Assembly (NCBI GenBank): GCA_037917685.1
Contig: JAVCBU010000010.1
Span: 1 to 27,762 of the forward strand
Reading direction: 5' to 3'
DNA from: Thermoproteota archaeon
GTDB lineage: Archaea > Korarchaeota > Korarchaeia > Korarchaeales > JAOZGB01
DNA length: 27,762 nucleotides
Of the stretch, positions 1 through 27,762 are shown one piece after another. The notes under the pieces were generated by a model, which saw nothing but the letters and a program-made list of their open reading frames with translations, had not been told where the DNA came from and made no database searches. Every line of letters starts with the position of its first letter. Position 1 is the stretch's first letter. Made by a program: the position numbers and the translations under genes.

Positions 1-866
1 GTGTTGGGGGTTTGGGGTTTGTGTCGTTTTATTAATTTGTGTTTGGTGTATACTTTGGTTGCTTTGTATAGTAGGAATGGTAGGGAGAATGTTAGCCATA
101 GGCCTAGTAGGAGGAGTTTGCCTGTGTAGGCCCAGCCTATGAGGCTGTCTAGGGAGACAGCGAGCCATAGGCTGACGATTTCGTCTTTCAGCTCTTCGCT
201 GCTTATCTTAACTTTTAACTCGTAGGCTGGCGGGATTCTTACGATTTTTCTGAAGGATTCGTGGATGTAGTAGGCTTCGAGGCCGCTTTCTGCAGCTATA
301 ACAGCCATGGCTCCTGACTCGGGCTTAAAACCTCCGGTGGGGTTAAGCAGTATCCTGGATCTTTTATGCTTGGCTACGATTCTTCTAATTTCGTCTCTTA
401 GGTCTTTGAGTGCTTCGCCAAAGTTTCTCTTGCTAAACCCTGAGACTTCCCTTGTTTCAACCCTGCTGAATCCCATTCTTCTGAGCGTTGTTCTGAGGGC
501 CTCAGTTGTAACCCTTCCAGTCCAAGTGTCGGTGTGTAAGAGGTAAATAGCCGAGGCTGTTTTGATCTTTCCCTTCCAGTCTAGGTTGGGATATTCTTCC
601 TCGAGAAACCCGAGGAGGGAGTTGAACTCTGCGCATAGCCTTCTTATACGGGTGATAGTCTCATCGTCCAGAATCTTGCCCTCTGGGAGGAGATGGTTGG
701 CAAGCGACCTCTCAACAATCATTCTAAATTCTGGGTCAACCTCTAAGACATGTTCAACTTCCCCTAAATCCATGTCCTTCAGCCTGCTGGTCTCCCCCTT
801 CAAGTCCGACCTGGTCATACCTAGGAGGGAGCTTAAGCCAACGCTAACTACATGGATATCACCCAA
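1..866 (-). CDS. CARF-domain protein (APE2256/Crn1 ring-nuclease-like family) with C-terminal hydrophobic membrane segment; partial, runs off the left edge
   Basis: Not in the ORF track; translated manually. TTG start at 866 is preceded by GGAGGTG, and the frame is open for 288 codons to the window edge. Motifs IHVVSVGLSSL, CAEFNSL, YLLHTDTWTG, LLNPTGGFKPES and YYIHESFRKIVRIP match the APE2256-type CARF signature. These are followed by hydrophobic IVSLWLAVSLDSLIGWAYTGKLLLLGLWLTFSLPFLLY and a K/H-rich tail. Confidence 0.85.
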   Translation of the reverse strand, partial: MGDIHVVSVGLSSLLGMTRSDLKGETSRLKDMDLGEVEHVLEVDPEFRMIVERSLANHLLPEGKILDDETITRIRRLCAEFNSLLGFLEEEYPNLDWKGKIKTASAIYLLHTDTWTGRVTTEALRTTLRRMGFSRVETREVSGFSKRNFGEALKDLRDEIRRIVAKHKRSRILLNPTGGFKPESGAMAVIAAESGLEAYYIHESFRKIVRIPPAYELKVKISSEELKDEIVSLWLAVSLDSLIGWAYTGKLLLLGLWLTFSLPFLLYKATKVYTKHKLIKRHKPQTPN

Positions 867-1450
867 CCTCCAGCACCTCCCACTAAGCAACAAACAACAG
901 CTTAAAATAATCACTGGTAAAGGGAAGCCAGCTTTAACTGGTTCGGGAAGATGGAGAATTTGGAAGCCGCTAAAATCAGTATGCGTGTTTCAAAAGCTCT
1001 TCTTTCCTCCTTGAGAGTTTTAATGCGAATAACTCCATAGCTATAATTGGTTTGTGTCACCTCTGTGTGATATGGATTGTGCTTTATAGGGCCGCCTGGG
1101 CTGTGGGCTGTAATGTTTTATGGGATCCTATTCGTGTGGGGTAGGTGTGGGGGGAGCTTGGTGGCCTTGTAGGGTGTGGAATCTTTATATTTGCGGTTTG
1201 GCCTATTCGCCAAGGCCCTAGGGCTTAAAAGTTGTGAGACAGCGGAGACGCCCTGAACTCTTCTCTTTAGTGTGGGTAGATTATTATTCTTGTAGGGGTT
1301 GCTGTGATAGGGTGCTTCGGTGTTTTATTGTGTATTTAAAGTTTGGAGGCTGTTCTGACCATTTATTGTTTGGCTGGTGGTTGTGTTTTCCGGGTTTGCT
1401 GTCTTTCTGGGGGGCTTGGTTGTGCGGGGTTTTGTGTGCTTTGTTTTTTG

Positions 1451-2029
1451 TTATGGTTGGAGTAGGGGTTTCAGCTTTTCTATGATTCTTTTTTGGACTT
1501 TTTTGTTGTAGTTTTTGAGGTATTGTTGGAGTTTGTGTTTGTTTATGTTTTTCTTGGCTTCTTTGATTGTTTCTTTGTGTATTGGCTGCCTGTAGTATGC
1601 TAGGTCTATCATTGTCTTTTCCAGGTCTGAGACTGGGATGTAGATTTCTCCGTATTTGACGTATTTGTATCCGAAGTAGTATTTTGGGCTTAGCTTGTGG
1701 ATTGCGACTTTTGAGCCCATTACTGTTCTGTCGCCTCTTATGTTTCTCGTTGTGACTATGATTACTGTTGTCTCCTGTGTCCAGAGGTTGTGGATGCTGA
1801 GTGCGTCCTGTAGGCCTATGTAGGCTGGCCTGTAGCAGAAGACTGTTAGGGTTGGATCGTCGTGGATTGTGTAGTATCCTTTTACAAGCCTTTTAATCAC
1901 GCCTCTTTTTTCAAGCGAGTGTAGGAGTAGATATGCGTACTGCCTGCTTCCTGTGAGCATTGCTATATCCCTAACTGCCACAACTGGGCTGGTTTTAAAG
2001 AGTTCTATTATGCTTGGGAGGTGCTTCAT
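1451..2029 (-). CDS. Type IV TA antitoxin, AbiEi-like transcriptional regulator
   Basis: N-terminal wHTH (LHSLEKRGVIKRLVKGYY), then AYIGLQDALSIHNL and VSDLEKTMIDL. The ATG at 2029 overlaps the upstream stop (ATGA), suggesting translational coupling. Confidence 0.85.
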   Translation of the reverse strand: MKHLPSIIELFKTSPVVAVRDIAMLTGSRQYAYLLLHSLEKRGVIKRLVKGYYTIHDDPTLTVFCYRPAYIGLQDALSIHNLWTQETTVIIVTTRNIRGDRTVMGSKVAIHKLSPKYYFGYKYVKYGEIYIPVSDLEKTMIDLAYYRQPIHKETIKEAKKNINKHKLQQYLKNYNKKVQKRIIEKLKPLLQP

Positions 2030-2679
2030 TTTACCCATCTTACTATCCACCTATAGATATCCTCAGCTTTTGGGGCTATGCCTGTATATACGAGGATTTT
2101 AAGCTCCTCCGGGTCTGTTGGGGGCTTGTAGTTCTCTATCAGCCTTTTTATATGCTTCTTCGCAGTGTTTTTGTCCTCCGCATGGTTTAGGAGATGGAGT
2201 ATATCGTATAGGTCTCTTACCCTAAGCCTTTTGAGATATGCTTCCACCTTTTCCCCTATAAGGGCTTCAGGGGGTAAAGTGTAGACTATTATATAATTAC
2301 CATCTACAAGCTCGTATCTCCTAGTGACATAATCTCCGACCTTCTTGAAAACTGCTTCAAAGGAAACCAGGGCATCTCTCCATTCATACCTCGCATACAG
2401 GGATCTCCTTGAAACCTTGAACTTGAGTGTTCTAAAGCCTAGCCCTTCAACCGCCTGTTTAAAATCCTCAAGCTTCAACCTGGCTTCGGGATCGAGGTAG
2501 AAGTCTAGATCCTCCGAGAACCTGTTACTTCCATAGCATCTCCAGACAGCTGTTCCCCCATGGAGAACCGGTGATCCAAGACTGTTATAGGCTTCGGCTA
2601 CCACGAGGTCCTGTGCCTCGGCTATCTTTCTGTGTAGGCTCCTCCTGAGCCTCAAGGCTAGGGGTACCGCAGGCATCAT
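2026..2679 (-). CDS. Type IV TA toxin, AbiEii/DUF1814 nucleotidyltransferase
   Basis: Motifs HGGTAVWRCYGSNRFSEDLDF, EKVEAYLKR and RDLYDI. Start placed at the ATG at 2679, about 25 nt downstream of a TATA element. Confidence 0.88.
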   Translation of the reverse strand: MMPAVPLALRLRRSLHRKIAEAQDLVVAEAYNSLGSPVLHGGTAVWRCYGSNRFSEDLDFYLDPEARLKLEDFKQAVEGLGFRTLKFKVSRRSLYARYEWRDALVSFEAVFKKVGDYVTRRYELVDGNYIIVYTLPPEALIGEKVEAYLKRLRVRDLYDILHLLNHAEDKNTAKKHIKRLIENYKPPTDPEELKILVYTGIAPKAEDIYRWIVRWVK

Positions 2680-2692
2680 GATAGATGTATTT

Positions 2693-2716
2693 ATCCTTAT
2701 ATATAAGTATAAGGAT
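2693..2716. promoter_or_regulatory. TATA box embedded in an inverted repeat; putative AbiEi operator
   Basis: ATCCTTATA-tataag-TATAAGGAT has perfect 9-bp arms and lies 14-37 nt upstream of the toxin start. Confidence 0.65.
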
Positions 2717-2874
2717 GAGAACACCAATTCTTCCATTGGGGCACAGGAAGGGTTGGACATTTAGGGTTGAGCATCCCCTGCCCTGGAGGATTTAAACAGG
2801 CACAGTTTCTGCATTATGCATGGGCTGTGGGGAATTTTCAGGTTTCAAGGCAGTATTGGTGGGAAGTTGACACT

Positions 2875-3369: not shown

Positions 3370-3457
3370 CTTATTTGAGAGTTTTAGTATTGTGTTGTAG
3401 GTCTGGAATTCGGCTTATTTGAGAGTTTTAGTATTGTGTTGTAGGTCTGGAATTCGG
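3370..3457. repeat. Perfect 44-bp tandem duplication
   Basis: CTTATTTGAGAGTTTTAGTATTGTGTTGTAGGTCTGGAATTCGG occurs at 3370-3413 and 3414-3457. Confidence 0.95.
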
Positions 3458-4724
3458 GTGCCATGCTGTCGTAGACTTTTGAAACGCCGAATGAGAGTTT
3501 TACGGCGTCTCTGCCCATGTAGCCGCCGTGTACAGGGGGCAGGAACAAGGCTCCCCTCTCGGAGAAGAACCTGTCAGCCAGCTCTATGAACCTGCACTGC
3601 TGCTCAGGTGTTAGGTTCTGGCTGAAGGCTCCGAGCGGCGTCCTAATGGTTGAAGCCCAGTCTATGAACACAAATATGGGTGTGTCTCCCATTGCCTCCC
3701 TTATTGCTGAGATCCTTAGATCCCACTTTTCCTCGTCCAGCCGGAGGCTGAGAACCTCTGCCATCGACGGTGAAAACGTGACGAAGTCTAGGGGTGGAGG
3801 CTCATATTCCAGGCCGAGGAGATGTGCCTCAACTACGAACACGCCCCAGCTTCCAACGTAGATGTATCTACCCTTCGATTCGCCGTATCGGTGGATCTCC
3901 TCTATTATCCGGCATGCTGCCTCATATGATTCCCTGACTGCTACATGTTCGGGGTCTCCGGATATTCTCGCTAGCATTCCTGCCTGGGTGAAGAGCATGT
4001 CTATCCATATGGCGTCGACCCCGCAGTCTATCTGCTTCTCAGCCCAGCTTAGAATAAGCTCCTGAAACCTTTCGTTTGTAATGTCGGGGAAGTATGCCGG
4101 CACCGTCTCAGGGTTGTACTCGCCGCAGTCTTTGTCAGGGCTGAACCAGAAGTGTGTCTTGGCGAACCTACACTGGAACTCCTCCTTCGACATCTGGAGC
4201 CCCCACTTCCCGGGGTCGAGGGCCATCCCCCAGGTTTCAGGGTAGTCTATTATCTCCCCTGTCACGGGGTTCCATAGGCGTCTATCGAGCTTCTGGGCTG
4301 GTATGGCTCCACAGAATATAATGTCAGGAACCTCCTCCTTAATCCTTGATATCAACTCTTGCAGTTGGCTGTAGCTGTATCCCGACTCCATACAGACTTC
4401 CTTAGCTCTCCCCCTCAGCTGGCTGCAGTCTTGTGGGCATGGGGACCACCTCCAGAATCCTCTAAAGACAAAGTCCACATTTAAGTCCTTGAACATCTCT
4501 ATAACATCGTCCAGGTCTCTACCTATATAGTACTGTAATCTATCCCTAACATTCTCATACACAACGCCAACCCTGATATTTGAAAGGTTATTAGCCTTTA
4601 CGGGGCCCCTACCCACATGTAAGCCATGTTTAAAGTGTAGAAGAAGTGTTAGACAGATGAGACATGCGGCTAAGCCGGCAAGCAATATGTAGAATCTCTT
4701 GGCCTTCATCTTAATCCTGCTCAC
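3384..4724 (-). CDS. Membrane-anchored extracellular protein, possible glycoside-hydrolase-like TIM barrel
   Basis: Basic N-terminus plus hydrophobic helix; motif QIDCGVDAIWID; aromatic-rich; 446 aa. Confidence 0.6.
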   Translation of the reverse strand: MSRIKMKAKRFYILLAGLAACLICLTLLLHFKHGLHVGRGPVKANNLSNIRVGVVYENVRDRLQYYIGRDLDDVIEMFKDLNVDFVFRGFWRWSPCPQDCSQLRGRAKEVCMESGYSYSQLQELISRIKEEVPDIIFCGAIPAQKLDRRLWNPVTGEIIDYPETWGMALDPGKWGLQMSKEEFQCRFAKTHFWFSPDKDCGEYNPETVPAYFPDITNERFQELILSWAEKQIDCGVDAIWIDMLFTQAGMLARISGDPEHVAVRESYEAACRIIEEIHRYGESKGRYIYVGSWGVFVVEAHLLGLEYEPPPLDFVTFSPSMAEVLSLRLDEEKWDLRISAIREAMGDTPIFVFIDWASTIRTPLGAFSQNLTPEQQCRFIELADRFFSERGALFLPPVHGGYMGRDAVKLSFGVSKVYDSMAPEFQTYNTILKLSNKPNSRPTTQY

Positions 4725-4844: not shown

Positions 4845-6275
4845 ATGGATTGGAAGATAGTTCTGGTTGCCTGCGCCTTAATAGTTGCGATCTCCATATA
4901 TGTGGTCTACACGGAGATTGCGAAGCCATCTGAGGCAGAGCTTAAAGAGGAGCTCAGACAGAAGGCTAGAAGCTTCCTAGAAGAGTTGAGGACTAAGGAG
5001 TCTGAAGGCTACGATGTCAGGGGTGCCAGGAGAATAGCTTTGAAGACCGTCAGGGCATACAGGGAGGGTGACTATGAGAGCGCTGCAAAACTCCTTGATC
5101 TTGCCATTGAAGCATTGGATAAGGCTGAGAAGCTTGAGCCGAAGCCTTGGCAGATATGCGAATCCAACATTATGATTAATGACATCCCAGATGTCGAGGA
5201 CTTCGTCCCAATAGGTGTCACATACGTTGAGACAGAAGACCACGTCCTACAATATATTCCCGGCGACCCAAACTGGGTGCAGAGCTGCTTCATAATCGTT
5301 GCAGTTGGCGAAAGCCCCGATGGGGAGCATACGATCCTCTACCAGGGCAGGCTACCCCTAACATGCGTACCATGCTTCGAGGAAGCTCTACCCGGAGCCT
5401 TCAAGGTGAAACTGTACATAGATGGCAAATGGTACTATCCTGTAACCTTTGTTGGGCCTATGTACTATGACGGGGAGGGAAGAGAATTCGAGTACCCTAC
5501 GGTTTACAACTATGACACCGAGGGCAAGTATATACAGACGCTGTCGTACAACAGGGAGGGGAGGGAGTGGATACACGTAATCAGACCTTTGGACGGCGAA
5601 GGCTTCAGGCTTGAGATGCACGGCTACGCAAGGTCAACCTTCTGGATGGGGAAGATGGAGGGACCGTACATAGTACACGGAGCATACCACAACAGGGAGA
5701 ACGTGGACATTTGGGGAGGCTTCTGGGAGGGTGGAACCACAACCATAACAGTTGAGATGCCAGGTGTAGGCACGTACACCTTTAACGGGACATTCCTGTT
5801 CGACAGGGCAATCCACAGGTCATACCCCGGGGTGGGAAGAGGATCCGTCCTCTCCTTCTCATGCCTATTCATCCACCAGGACGAGTTCGACCTAATGCTG
5901 GCACACTCTGTAAACCCGACACCCAAAGACTTCCCAGCGTTCCAGCATCAGGCAAAAATATGCTTCCCTGCGAGGGGAGAATGGTACCCGCTCCTCGAGT
6001 TCAACCTGACAGACGATGGGGGACTCCAACCAGACACATTCTATCTAACAGGGGCATTCGAAGCCGGGACGTTAAACCTTACCGGGAAAGTATTCGAGTA
6101 TTGGCCGCAGAAATGGGGGGTAAAAAGGGGAACCTGGTGGGATCCTACCGGAAAGTTCACATGGGGAAGAGCGTTCATTAGATGGACAGGATACATAGTC
6201 TTTAACGGTGAGGTAATAGGGGTAGACGCAGTAGGAGTAGGAGAATTCACAAGATTCCAGGCATTACAGCCCTAA
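4845..6275 (+). CDS. Membrane-anchored hypothetical protein; helical stalk plus beta-rich domain, possibly AttH/CrtC/lipocalin-like
   Basis: N-terminal TM helix, helical-hairpin segment, W/Y/G-rich beta strands, C-terminal GVGEF. Confidence 0.55.
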   Translation: MDWKIVLVACALIVAISIYVVYTEIAKPSEAELKEELRQKARSFLEELRTKESEGYDVRGARRIALKTVRAYREGDYESAAKLLDLAIEALDKAEKLEPKPWQICESNIMINDIPDVEDFVPIGVTYVETEDHVLQYIPGDPNWVQSCFIIVAVGESPDGEHTILYQGRLPLTCVPCFEEALPGAFKVKLYIDGKWYYPVTFVGPMYYDGEGREFEYPTVYNYDTEGKYIQTLSYNREGREWIHVIRPLDGEGFRLEMHGYARSTFWMGKMEGPYIVHGAYHNRENVDIWGGFWEGGTTTITVEMPGVGTYTFNGTFLFDRAIHRSYPGVGRGSVLSFSCLFIHQDEFDLMLAHSVNPTPKDFPAFQHQAKICFPARGEWYPLLEFNLTDDGGLQPDTFYLTGAFEAGTLNLTGKVFEYWPQKWGVKRGTWWDPTGKFTWGRAFIRWTGYIVFNGEVIGVDAVGVGEFTRFQALQP

Positions 6276-8463: not shown

Positions 8464-9168
8464 ATGGCTGGGTTTTCTAATGGTAGGCTGAAGAGGATAG
8501 TTGACAGGTATATGAGCAGGGTGAGGGGGCTCCGGGATTATTGTGATAGATGTCTTAGGACGGAGCGTTGGGGTGGAAGCGTCGTGTTAATGGTTGTAGA
8601 CGCTGCTTTCACCTCTATAGGCTTAAACTATTTTACAGCTGTTGTTCCAAAGGTTATGGAGTTTAACAGAAGGTTTGTAGAGACTGGGAGGATTACCTCA
8701 CTTAGGGATCTCGCTGAGGCGGATGTTGCTGCTCTCACCCAGGTGTGGAGGAACAGGCGTTCATGGGATGCTGCAAGGGGTGTGGCATCCATTCTTTCAT
8801 CGATCTCCACCAGTGACAGGGAGGCTTTAAGGGGATGGGCTCAGAGGGCATGCCTGGAGGAATGGAGGAGCGACCCAGTTGGCGGGGTGAGGGGTGTGGG
8901 AGTAGTGACGTTTCAGTATTTAAGGATGATGGGCGGTGTAGATACTGTTATGCCTGATAAGATTGTGAAGAGGGTTATAAACGGAATTCTGTCGGAAGCT
9001 GGCTTCAGCCCGGTACACGATGATATAGAATTCGTCCGGAGGGCTGAACAGCTTGCCCTATCCTGCGGGTATAGGCCAATAGAGCTATGCTGGATGACAT
9101 GGCTTGTACAGCGGGAAGGGAGACTTGTAAGGATGGAGAAGTATGCAGATATCCTTTCAAAGATTTGA
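8464..9168 (+). CDS. Uncharacterised HhH-GPD-superfamily (DNA glycosylase-like) protein
   Basis: HhH motif VRGVGVVTFQYLRMMGG followed by DTVMPDKIVKR with the conserved Asp. Confidence 0.65.
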   Translation: MAGFSNGRLKRIVDRYMSRVRGLRDYCDRCLRTERWGGSVVLMVVDAAFTSIGLNYFTAVVPKVMEFNRRFVETGRITSLRDLAEADVAALTQVWRNRRSWDAARGVASILSSISTSDREALRGWAQRACLEEWRSDPVGGVRGVGVVTFQYLRMMGGVDTVMPDKIVKRVINGILSEAGFSPVHDDIEFVRRAEQLALSCGYRPIELCWMTWLVQREGRLVRMEKYADILSKI

Positions 9169-9311: not shown

Positions 9312-9387
9312 CGGGCCCGGCGGGATTCGAACCCGCGACATCCGGCTCCGGAGGCCGGCGCTCTAATCCTTGCTGAGCTACGGGCCC
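9312..9387 (-). tRNA. tRNA-Arg(CCG), intronless, full CCA not encoded
   Basis: The reverse complement folds into a cloverleaf: acceptor GGGCCCG/CGGGCCC, anticodon arm CCGGC-CTCCGGA-GCCGG, T-arm GGTTCGAATCC. A TTTAAA box lies about 25 nt upstream. Confidence 0.97.
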
Positions 9388-9425: not shown

Positions 9426-11441
9426 TCAGGCTTTCGGGGCTGGTAGATAGAGTTTCTGGAGGTGTTTTTTAAGCTGTGAGACGTTGGCTGTTTCGATGTA
9501 GTCACCTGGGTTCTTTCCCTTCGGCGATGTCTTTACTGTCTGGAGTTTTAGGGCTGTTTTCCCTATGATTGTTAGTATTTTGTGCTGGCCAATTATGCCC
9601 TGGAGGAGGGGTATGTCATCGGGTACTGGGATTGAGCCTCCGAAGTCTTTTCGGAACCAGTGGCCCACAGTGTGCCTGTAGCTTTTGGGAAGCATGTCTA
9701 TGATTTTCTGGATTGTTAGTCCCTTCCTCCTCCTGAGAAGGTTTAGGTACTGGGCTACTATTGGCTGCTCAATCTTATACAGCCTGGTTCTTGTAAAGTA
9801 TTCCCCTATTATTGTCTTCCTAGCCCCGGGCGACGCACCCCAGTTTAGCCGCTCCAGCTGTTTAAACTTGCTCCTCTTCTCCCTCCTATTTCCCGGGGGT
9901 TCCCTCTTTCCCACGTTTTCGCTTGGGGTGTATTTTATTGTTTTTAGCTTTGCTGACATAATAGCTGCCGGCTTGGGTTCTTCAATTGCTGGTGCTGTGT
10001 TTAGACTTATCCATAGGGCTGTGTTGCACCTTGGACACCTATTTTTTCCTGAGGGGTCGTAGGGGCTTTCTAGGGTTGTGTTGCACCTTGGACACCTATA
10101 TTTTAGTCCTTCCATCACTACTGTCTCCCTTTGAGGGTGTAATACTGGTTCTATTGTTATGTTGTCTTCCCATTTTACTGCTACTATCATCGGGAAGCCG
10201 TCCCGGTATCTTTCTAAGACGCCTGTTATACTGCCTCTCCTCTTCTTTTTGCCTAGGCTGTCCCTCACCGGGGTACCTGTGAAGTCTGTGTTCATCCAGT
10301 CTCTCTCTTCTATTGTTTTCGGCTTTACTCTTACCTGGTCGAGGTTGAACCTGTAAGCTACTGTGGTTATGTCCCTGGCTAGCATGAATACTGGGTACCA
10401 TGATCTGCCGTTGGAGGCTACTATCATGTTTCTGAGGACGTAGCCTTGGTGTATGACTGCATGTGCATAGTATAGGGATTCTATATCCCATTCTACTACT
10501 CCGTAGAAGTAGAGGGCGTCTCTCCTATGGTACTTTTTAAAGCTGGGTGTGGCCATGCCCTTCAGCGCTCTCAGGAATGTTTCATGGTTTTCGGCTATGT
10601 AGACCTCCCCATACCGGCATGTCTCAACTATTAAGGGTTCAACATCCGGGATTCTCCTCTCTCTGACAGGCTTCCAGTGATAGGGGGTGTCCTCAACCTT
10701 TACTACCTTTTTGACGCCTGCTCTCCTCCTTATAATTTTGACATATTCTTCCTCCTTCTCTATCATTATTGAGTAGGCTTTAACAGGGAGGGGGCTCCTT
10801 CTAAGCCTCCTAACCACGTATGCTACTGTTCCTGTGCCGGCGAAGGGGTCCAGGACAGTGTCCCCGTCTTCAAGCTTGAACCTCCCAAGTAGTTCTTCCA
10901 CGAGTCTCTCCGGGAAGACAGCCGTATGCCTCCAAGGGGTTTGCTGTAGGCGAACTTTTACGACAGTTCTGGATCTCTGGTAGCGGTTTCCAGGCGCCTT
11001 TGATAGTACGAGAATCGGCTCGTAGGTGCTGGTGAACCTGTCCCTGACTGGTGAGGGCATGTGGTTGGGCTTATACCATATTATAACGTCTTCAAGCCGC
11101 CAGCCCTGCCTAGTCATATGGTATGCAAGCCTGTAGGGTATTTGGAGGAGGTGAGACTTCCCGTACCTTGGCAGATACTTATCTCCAACGTTTAGGAAGA
11201 GGACACCATCCTCTCTAAGCTTACGCCTCAACATGTTAAACACTTGCAGAAGCCGGCCTATATACTCTTCAGGAGTGTTTTCCCATCCTATCTGCCCCTG
11301 GAAGCCGTAGTCCCTCTGCCTCCAGTAGGGCGGCGAGGTAATCACCAGAGACACTGAAGAGTCCTCAAGCTGGGACAGGCAGGCATAGGTGTCTCCATGT
11401 AGTACTATGTCCTCCACTCTCCAGCCACCGTGCCTTAGCAT
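9426..11441 (-). CDS. Beta-class N4-cytosine/N6-adenine DNA methyltransferase with long C-terminal extension (degenerate MTase-like repeat, Zn ribbon, HTH)
   Basis: Catalytic TSPPY precedes the SAM-binding VLDPFAGTGT; also IIWYKPN and HTAVFPERL. CPRC occurs twice, and an HTH-like segment reads LRRRKGLTIQKI..TVGHWF. Confidence 0.88.
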   Translation of the reverse strand: MLRHGGWRVEDIVLHGDTYACLSQLEDSSVSLVITSPPYWRQRDYGFQGQIGWENTPEEYIGRLLQVFNMLRRKLREDGVLFLNVGDKYLPRYGKSHLLQIPYRLAYHMTRQGWRLEDVIIWYKPNHMPSPVRDRFTSTYEPILVLSKAPGNRYQRSRTVVKVRLQQTPWRHTAVFPERLVEELLGRFKLEDGDTVLDPFAGTGTVAYVVRRLRRSPLPVKAYSIMIEKEEEYVKIIRRRAGVKKVVKVEDTPYHWKPVRERRIPDVEPLIVETCRYGEVYIAENHETFLRALKGMATPSFKKYHRRDALYFYGVVEWDIESLYYAHAVIHQGYVLRNMIVASNGRSWYPVFMLARDITTVAYRFNLDQVRVKPKTIEERDWMNTDFTGTPVRDSLGKKKRRGSITGVLERYRDGFPMIVAVKWEDNITIEPVLHPQRETVVMEGLKYRCPRCNTTLESPYDPSGKNRCPRCNTALWISLNTAPAIEEPKPAAIMSAKLKTIKYTPSENVGKREPPGNRREKRSKFKQLERLNWGASPGARKTIIGEYFTRTRLYKIEQPIVAQYLNLLRRRKGLTIQKIIDMLPKSYRHTVGHWFRKDFGGSIPVPDDIPLLQGIIGQHKILTIIGKTALKLQTVKTSPKGKNPGDYIETANVSQLKKHLQKLYLPAPKA

Positions 11442-27251: not shown

Positions 27252-27762
27252 CTACTTCCGTCTCACAGCAAGTAATAATGCTACGTTTGCAATTCCCGCT
27301 GGAACTATAAAAGGTAGGATGCACGCCCCTAGGAGGGCTGGAAACCGGAGATAATATCCGAAATATCCGGCTATAAGGGCAGACAAGCAAAGCAATCCCA
27401 TGCTGAGCAAAGCTGATAAAACCCCATCGGCAAGCTTGCACCCCCATATCAAGAGTACTATTATCGACGCTCCTACAACTAAAGCGCATGGTTCCGTAGC
27501 AAGGCTTGCAAAAAGCCCGGCAGGGTAGACTAGGAGAACCCTTACAGTCCATGCAAGAGTCTTATGCGAGCTGAGAACGCCAGCTATAGGTGGGCTGCAG
27601 CGGTAGTAAACTCTGACCAAGGCCCGGGTAACATGGTTAGAGTTTAAAACCCTATCTCTGAAGGTTCTTAATCTCCTAAGAGCCCACGAGGAATCCGACC
27701 CAACACATGCAGTAGCCACAAAACAAGGAGGCGAGGTTGTTGGGGGTGGGGTTGTAGTTGGG
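27252..27762 (-). CDS. C-terminal part of a surface protein with CFI-box-CTERM domain and TM helices; partial
   Basis: The frame is open to the right edge: PTTTPPPTTSPP-CFVATAC..LRTFRDRVL..VRVYYRCSPPIA, then several hydrophobic helices. Confidence 0.85.
   Translation of the reverse strand, partial: PTTTPPPTTSPPCFVATACVGSDSSWALRRLRTFRDRVLNSNHVTRALVRVYYRCSPPIAGVLSSHKTLAWTVRVLLVYPAGLFASLATEPCALVVGASIIVLLIWGCKLADGVLSALLSMGLLCLSALIAGYFGYYLRFPALLGACILPFIVPAGIANVALLLAVRRK

Follow-up and report, generated by a model that had tools for sequence, protein, structure and literature searches.

Type III CRISPR signalling requires both an effector and an off-switch. The gene considered here, termed CARF-TM for its CARF domain and its predicted C-terminal transmembrane (TM) segment, may encode both in a single chain. 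It lies at the left end of a 27,762-bp window, which is the whole of contig G000:C15 from a 1.81-Mb archaeal metagenome-assembled genome (MAG; 22 contigs, 95% completeness). The nearest solved relative of the encoded protein is the long Crn1 form, with a CARF domain followed by a domain of the winged helix-turn-helix (wHTH) type, and not the short form Sso2081. The long form is represented by Sis0811 of S. islandicus (PDB 7PQ2; CARF domain 1-199, wHTH domain 208-268) and by its homologue Sso1393 (3QYF; PMC8643638). In Sis0811, S12 and K169 form the catalytic pair, Y189 touches the phosphate, and T98 and T100 are among the residues in contact with cyclic tetra-adenylate (cA4; PMC8643638).

Among the membrane proteins gated by such ligands, Cam1 consists of a single N-terminal TM helix, with a conserved pore-lining Asp, followed by a C-terminal CARF domain (PMC10808066). 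Cam1, Csx23 and Cap1 are small proteins that join a cA4 sensor to one or two TM helices, as is predicted for the window protein; their TM segments, however, are N-terminal, their sensors are not of the Cas_APE2256 ring-nuclease type, and they form tetrameric pores. Compared with Cam1, the domain order is opposite and two helices are found instead of one; the counterpart of the Cam1 Asp could be sought in D240 of the hairpin, or a nearby D/E, which is conserved. The order seen here is instead that of the type II Panoptes CARF-TM proteins (2026; Cylindrospermum stagnale and others). These have an N-terminal CARF domain and a C-terminal TM segment essential for toxicity, and are modelled as a dimer (PMC13577387). 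They are bacterial and paired with mCpol, bind cyclic triadenylate (cA3) and are active upon ligand removal (PMC13577387). The arrangement of an N-terminal CARF domain with a C-terminal TM segment is already characterised and so is not unprecedented. The likeness is one of published domain architecture; in contrast to Panoptes, no mCpol was matched here, the CARF domain is of the ring-nuclease type and the neighbourhood, as seen in relatives, is CRISPR-related. The DHH-DHHA1 nuclease MAD, which is membrane-associated and degrades cA4 (cited in PMC8284326), has an unrelated fold; its function would be common to the window protein only if the latter is an anchored nuclease.

From its sequence, the window protein is best described as a descendant of Crn1/Sso1393-type ring nucleases in which a C-terminal hydrophobic hairpin has replaced the wHTH domain. 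The gene occupies 3..866 on the minus strand, to which all its features given below also belong, and comprises 288 codons from TTG-866, with the 3' end running off the contig. Residues 1-213 (228..866) form the CARF domain (Cas_APE2256/CARF7, Sis0811/Sso1393 type). Pfam Cas_APE2256 (PF09651) recognises residues 75-213 of it with E=1.1e-27 and a score of 97 bits, the cut-off being 24.8, and NCBIfam TIGR02619 gives E=2.5e-23. Among the PADLOC profiles, the CARF names of which are taken to follow the published CARF census, CARF_RelE is the best match (E=1.1e-35, over the CARF part only), and CARF7--CARF gives E=3.3e-34. A PDB profile search with the four closest sequences recovered two solved structures that align to residues 1-211, 7PQ2/7PQ3 with E=8.1e-13 and 3QYF with E=2e-10. 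In the ESM Atlas model of the homologue P0007, residues 1-200 resemble clusters of SSO1393-like ring nucleases with a TM-score of 0.69; no structural cluster was matched beyond residue 200 of that model. Collectively, these matches place the domain in the Cas_APE2256/CARF7 group, with a resemblance to Sis0811/Sso1393. A preliminary description of this DNA, made from the letters alone, had already spoken of an APE2256/Crn1-type CARF domain and proposed a comparison with Crn1/Sso1393; the assignment is borne out by the family matches, and the comparison did lead to Sis0811 and Sso1393.

The similarity to Sis0811/Sso1393 extends to the active site. The G10-L11-S12 motif (831..839) aligns S12 with the catalytic S12 of Sis0811, the T177-G-G-F-K181 motif (324..338) aligns K181 with the catalytic K169, and Y199-Y-I-H-E203 (258..272), invariant in the family, aligns Y200 with Y189. 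Both the G-x-S and the TGG[FY]K motifs are kept in 20/20 family members. Of the positions compared (window protein/Sis0811), S12/S12, K181/K169, T112/T98, T114/T100 and Y200/Y189 carry the same residue, while G16/N16, N82/D75, G117/S103 and H202/Y191 differ. Since residues in contact with cA4 in Sis0811 are conserved, cA4 is the predicted ligand. The two proteins are also of similar length, and share a helical insertion in the CARF domain, located here at about residues 14-74. Nevertheless, the protein was classed as a derived variant rather than an orthologue of Crn1, because it has neither the wHTH domain nor the solubility of Crn1 and remains below the cut-off of the NCBIfam equivalog NF040951 ('CRISPR system ring nuclease'; 33.1 bits against 600).

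The main difference is found after the CARF domain, where Sis0811 has its wHTH domain and a disordered tail, and the window protein a two-helix hydrophobic hairpin and a basic tail. The CARF part ends in YYIHESFRKIVRIPP. Residues 214-229 (180..227) then form a charged linker that contains the conserved E-L-K-V-[KR] string and, ahead of the hairpin, a charged segment. Hydrophobic helix 1, residues 230-247 (126..179), contains the conserved D240-S241 within a P/L-x-D-S-x-[LI]-G motif. A three-residue turn, T248-G-K250 (117..125), separates it from hydrophobic helix 2, residues 251-267 (66..116), in which W257, S261, L262, P263 and Y267 are conserved within the window's own clade. The Kyte-Doolittle 19-residue mean, for which the usual TM threshold is 1.6, reaches 1.37 in helix 1 and 1.68 in helix 2. 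The basic C-terminal tail, residues 268-288 (3..65), corresponds to a C/A-rich tract at the contig end, and the homologues also end here; its 21 residues include seven K/R and two H, and no D/E. In Pfam searches, no wHTH family was matched in residues 214-288, where only the linker, the two hydrophobic helices and the basic tail are seen, and no DHH/DHHA1 was matched in the protein. The purely basic tail and the three-residue turn fit an N-in/C-in hairpin with the tail in the cytoplasm, which is the topology predicted from the sequence. Taking into account that helix 1 is below and helix 2 above the threshold, 'one or two TM helices', as worded in the preliminary description, is a fair statement. 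Its other readings of this region hold as well: the string YYIHESF..VRIP is present, the hydrophobic residues 230-267 correspond to nt 66-179, and the tail is basic as claimed. An internal duplication of the two helices was considered, given the DNA repeat 81-103/150-172. At the protein level only 8/23 residues are identical, a value reached by 64/2000 shuffles, and the duplication is not seen in the homologues P0002 or P0003; it was judged not significant.

The combination is rare. An exhaustive profile search against 1.84 billion representative sequences yielded 760 matches at E<=0.001. Among the best 150 of these 760, at least nine (P0001, P0003, P0005-P0008, P0010, P0011 and P0030) have a hydrophobic C-terminus right after YYIHE...ELK[VI], and the clusters of these nine proteins together comprise no more than 15 of about 15 billion sequences. 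The whole family amounts to about 20 sequences, from uncultured Thermoproteota, and carries only the database label 'SSO1393-like domain' protein. For the window's clade, a scan of metagenomes added one further copy, on a 1648-bp contig (P0002). The hydrophobic tail is absent from 15 other metagenome loci and 27 bacterial genome loci (L014-L040), no viral copy was matched in 50,697 phage records or in IMG/VR, and the tail alone (residues 214-288), used as a query, retrieved no protein at E<=0.01.

An alignment of 20 sequences was assembled from the tail-bearing database matches and the copies from related genomes. The hydrophobic tail is present in 20/20 of these members, so that the end of the protein is not a read-through, a possibility that the preliminary description had allowed for. 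The sequences split into two clades. In that of the window, the proteins have 282-300 aa, helix 2 is longer and the basic tail extends over ~20 residues, whereas the second has 248-263 aa (one member 287 aa), a short basic tip such as L-K-K-A, and 19-residue means of 1.7-2.7 for both segments. Common to both are the two hydrophobic segments, the tight turn and, mostly, the P/L-x-D-S-x-[LI]-G motif; where D-S is missing, in four members, a D or E occurs nearby. In a maximum-likelihood tree of 149 rows, calculated from CARF columns only, the 16 tail-bearing rows make up one side of a branch (SH-aLRT 87), with a soluble protein of 248 aa as their closest neighbour. When the 49 nearest non-tail matches were scanned, Cas_APE2256 and no other Pfam family was found, except in one Beta-Casp fusion. 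Most of these 49 extend ~60-90 residues past the CARF match, and the ends inspected look like winged-helix domains. Since the tail-bearing rows lie on one branch amid wHTH-ended relatives, the hairpin replaced the wHTH domain once, within the Crn1-like lineage. Within the window's clade, the mean pairwise identity is 0.55 for the tail and 0.70 for the CARF core.

With regard to signalling, the preliminary description had seen neither cas genes nor a CRISPR array in the window and had proposed looking for cas10 elsewhere in the genome. Indeed, no cas gene is present among the 20 open reading frames (ORFs) of the window scanned with Pfam, nor in the 27 kb to the right of the gene, the left flank of the gene being off the contig, and a genome-wide k-mer scan places the CRISPR-like arrays on contig C9 only, with one tandem repeat on C14. 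Cas10 is found on the same contig C9. It is an 873-aa protein with an HD domain, a palm2 domain and a GGDD motif, and by these cyclase-competent, in a type III-D-like module (L006/L007) together with a Csx10-like protein, several Csx7-like RAMP proteins and Csm2. Type I-A-like Cas3', Csa1, Cas1 and Cas4 are also on C9, and CRISPR repeats occur at both of its ends. The genome has a single APE2256 gene, and no match to Csx1 (TIGR01897, PF09455), Can/Card1 (PF09002) or mCpol (PF18182). The SAVED profile gave no match in this genome and none in the control genomes either, and its silence is uninformative.

The relatives' loci were surveyed in 40 genomes of the GTDB class, which are fragmented and mutually related MAGs, and absences in this survey are consequently weak evidence. 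The CARF-TM gene occurs in 10/40 genomes, among them the own genome and one in which it is a pseudogene. In G016 and G023 it is divergent from a gene for a Csx14-like CARF5 protein, and in G004 from one for a Csx1-like CARF protein. In G025 it lies directly upstream of a type I Cas7-Cas5-Cas3 operon. In G028 it converges on the end of a type I cas cluster and is separated by 18 kb from a Cas10, and in G020 it has ABC transporters on either side and no cas gene close by. In 5/6 scanned relatives' loci, a gene of the cas, Csx14-like or Csx1-like kind is found within ~1.5 kb (in G028, the first recognisable cas gene is ~3.7 kb away). The pseudogene, with four in-frame stops, belongs to the other family of the class (G002:C62:7161-7715); a Csx14 match lies at a distance of 258 nt and a Cas10 at ~1.9 kb. 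These neighbours suggest that the family is CRISPR-linked, though tied to no single subtype. Csx14 is present in 6/10 genomes with the gene and 9/30 without, and Csx1_HEPN in 2/10 and 6/30, respectively. In 3/10 genomes the Csx14-like CARF5 protein, a predicted ring nuclease, is encoded within ~350 nt of the gene, so that in these genomes the resetting may be left to a separate protein.

A diadenylate-cyclase partner was also considered, since in G025 a 238-aa ORF upstream of the gene matches PADLOC C3a181 (E=2.3e-20), with no Pfam family. It was dropped as a specific partner, because C3a181 is multi-copy and occurs in 30/40 genomes, with up to 23 matches per genome. The G025 copy (L055, 9698-10414, minus strand) has no DisA_N domain by Pfam, which makes the 'Diadenylate cyclase' label look doubtful.

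Two readings had been put forward at the outset, a membrane-tethered ring nuclease and a self-limiting effector gated by cyclic oligoadenylate (cOA), and both are supported and remain viable. The evidence does not decide between them; the effector is slightly favoured here, and it is tentatively suggested, at somewhat less than even confidence, that the protein is a self-limiting, cA4-gated membrane effector. The CARF domains would dimerise in the cytoplasm, and the two helices would form an N-in/C-in membrane hairpin with the basic tail inside the cell. The cA4 made by the type III Cas10 of the genome would bind at the dimer interface, and the ligand-induced closure would be relayed via the short linker to the hairpins. 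Their association would perturb or depolarise the membrane and so stop growth, in the manner of Cam1, Csx23, Cap1 and the Panoptes CARF-TM proteins. The switch would then be reset as the CARF site itself slowly cleaves cA4. In the broader form of this proposal, possible but put forward still a little more cautiously, a Crn1-derived CARF dimer gating a minimal two-helix hairpin would serve hyperthermophilic archaea as a self-resetting, cA4-timed depolarisation switch.

Several observations are consistent with the effector. The characterised small proteins that join a cyclic oligoadenylate sensor to TM helices and were examined here (Cam1, Csx23, Cap1 and Panoptes CARF-TM) are all membrane-disrupting effectors, which by analogy supports the same role. 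An acidic residue, D240 in the window protein, is kept in or beside helix 1 across the family. CARF7 commonly bears C-terminal effector modules (PADLOC CARF7--CARF_RelE, _HD and _DUF2103); the sensor and the position of the module are the same here, the module being a membrane hairpin instead. Among the PADLOC matches listed (25 of 28), the only TM architecture is CARF3--CARF_TM (E=0.0021), and there is no CARF7 TM profile. The presence in the own genome of a cyclase-competent Cas10, yet of no other recognised cOA effector, was also counted in favour of the effector.

Other findings weigh against this preference. Helix 1 of the window protein, at 1.37, falls under the 1.6 threshold, and the nearest relatives in the tree are soluble CARF proteins of ~250-300 aa with wHTH-like ends, which is the architecture of proven ring nucleases. 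The catalytic pair, strict in 20/20 members, fits a dedicated enzyme and exceeds what a sensor needs. In the second, larger clade, the mean pairwise identity drops to 0.32 in the tail against 0.56 in the CARF core. Between the window gene and that of P0002, its closest DNA relative, the nonsynonymous and synonymous proportions (pN and pS) are 0.355 and 0.372 over the 38 hydrophobic codons, compared with 0.25 and 0.74 over CARF residues 1-213 (209 aligned codons), both comparisons being small samples. Such weak constraint on the tail fits a simple anchor. Cas10 (palm2) is found in only 6/10 genomes with the gene against 14/30 without, a weak association, and three family-less ORFs (407, 433 and 494 aa) beside the C9 type III module could be the real effectors. 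These three have no PADLOC, Pfam or NCBIfam family and no PDB relative, and hhalign showed no similarity to CARF7; for the 433-aa ORF, three homologues were found, all unannotated.

Much of this is what would be expected of a membrane-anchored ring nuclease, in which the CARF dimer would bind cA4 and cleave it to A2>P like Sis0811/Sso1393 and the hairpin would be only a tether to the inner face, with no effector activity. This explanation is plausible, and was rated only slightly lower than the effector. It agrees with the nesting of the protein among soluble Crn1/Sso1393-like proteins on the CARF tree, with the invariant catalytic Ser and Lys and the largely conserved cA4-contact residues, and with a tail that evolves faster than the CARF core and in which nothing but its hydrophobic character and a short motif is common to both clades. 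In G004 the gene adjoins that of a Csx1-like CARF protein, a possible effector to regulate, and a membrane-associated cA4-degrading enzyme, MAD, has been reported (cited in PMC8284326). However, there is no evident selective reason to anchor an enzyme acting on a freely diffusing small molecule, and none of the characterised CARF-TM proteins is merely an anchored enzyme. A second predicted ring nuclease, the Csx14-like protein, is adjacent in 3/10 genomes; more than one ring nuclease is found in only 10/242 ring-nuclease-positive loci of one survey (PMC12409355). The own genome offers no recognised cOA effector for such an enzyme to regulate.

The lower hydropathy of helix 1, which also contains D, S, S and G, would in turn suit a protein that is not in the membrane at all, the helices forming a soluble oligomerisation or auto-inhibitory module that takes over the function of the Sis0811 wHTH domain, described as structural or regulatory (PMC8643638, PMC10018336). 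This seems improbable, as both segments reach 1.7-2.7 in the larger clade, and a membrane hairpin typically shows the flanking aromatics, the three-residue turn and the purely basic end seen here. It is even less probable that the protein acts as an inverted guard of the Panoptes kind, in which a constitutive cyclic nucleotide silences the CARF-TM protein and its removal by viral sponges or ring nucleases leads to membrane damage. The domain order is indeed that of the type II Panoptes CARF-TM proteins, which have an N-terminal CARF domain of ~207 aa and a C-terminal TM segment (PMC13577387). The defining partner, mCpol (PF18182), is nevertheless absent from the own genome and from all 10 gene-bearing genomes of the class, the sole match among the 40 lying inside a Cas10, below the cut-off, and for this reason little weight was given to the guard. 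Furthermore, a CARF domain in which the ring-nuclease dyad is intact would degrade the very ligand that silences it, and the neighbours are cas, Csx14-like or Csx1-like genes and not a small cyclase, with the left flank of the window gene itself off the contig.

Returning to the favoured cA4-gated effector, an effector and an off-switch in one 290-residue chain would represent a compact natural timed membrane response, and would provide a tractable thermostable model for the passage of a ligand signal from a CARF dimer to TM helices. No smaller effector of this kind would be known, and the protein would be the first such effector to use a ring-nuclease-type sensor as well as the first CARF-TM effector from an archaeon. 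If the protein is only an anchored nuclease, a CARF enzyme could localise the removal of cA4 at the membrane. In either case, a ring-nuclease-type CARF domain with a membrane hairpin is a rare and uncharacterised combination. No description of it was found in the literature, where the papers retrieved deal with Panoptes or Panoptoo systems or review the field, although the CARF census of Makarova et al. 2020 may list CARF7-TM. A ring-nuclease census has been limited to a length of 250 aa and to 6 kb from type III loci (PMC12409355); these limits, together with the generic 'SSO1393-like domain' label, explain how the family escapes current surveys.

As for the limits of the gene, the minus-strand open frame runs from nt 914 (GTG) down to nt 3, off the contig edge. 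The more likely start is TTG-866 rather than GTG-914, since homologues begin with M-V-E-V-H-I-V-S-V-G, aligning with TTG-866, and GGAGGTG (880-874) lies 7 nt before it; 288 codons are counted from there. The putative 5' region (867..914, minus strand), read from the letters only, also contains an A/T-rich box at 911-902. Over their full length, P0001 (282 aa), P0002 (283 aa) and P0003 (291 aa) match the window protein with 63, 59 and 47% identity, and their C-termini fall 0-4 residues short of the window edge, in the same frame through the tail. A stop codon is seen after the P0002 gene, followed by a ~300-nt spacer and a convergent 116-aa ORF. Consequently, at most a few codons are missing, and the ORF of at least 288 codons, noticed earlier as running off the contig end, is a real minus-strand gene at nt 3-866 with homologues.

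No overlap with the first 1500 nt of the window was found among the other contigs of the own genome. Contigs of two public runs are identical to the window over nt 87-1400, and both break off at nt 87 in 19-22 loose adapter-like letters, presumably Nextera adapter. The first 86 nt lie outside their cover and are backed by protein-level conservation with independent sequences. Strongly G/T-rich, strand-asymmetric tracts are observed at 1-60, 1081-1500 and 27715-27762 of the window, as well as at the start of contig C13, and nt 1001-2000 show a GC skew of +0.29 and an AT skew of -0.46. Such tracts, in the spacer upstream of the CARF-TM gene and at both contig ends, may have caused the assembly break.

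The remainder of the window contains genes of other kinds. Upstream of the CARF-TM gene, a 540-nt G/T-rich spacer is followed by an AbiEi/AbiEii pair (1451-2760, minus strand), a type IV toxin-antitoxin or abortive-infection pair in which the AbiEi-like antitoxin (199 aa, PADLOC E=1.8e-23) overlaps the AbiEii nucleotidyltransferase toxin (244 aa, Pfam E=3.3e-19). The ORFs of 446 aa (3384-4724, minus strand), 476 aa (4845-6275, plus strand) and 234 aa (8464-9168, plus strand) have no Pfam or PADLOC family, and the first two no NCBIfam family either. A 671-aa type II DNA methyltransferase (9426-11441, minus strand; PADLOC MTase_II E=5.5e-224, Pfam N6_N4_Mtase), beside which no restriction enzyme was recognised, is followed directly downstream by a tRNA gene at 9312-9387 on the minus strand.

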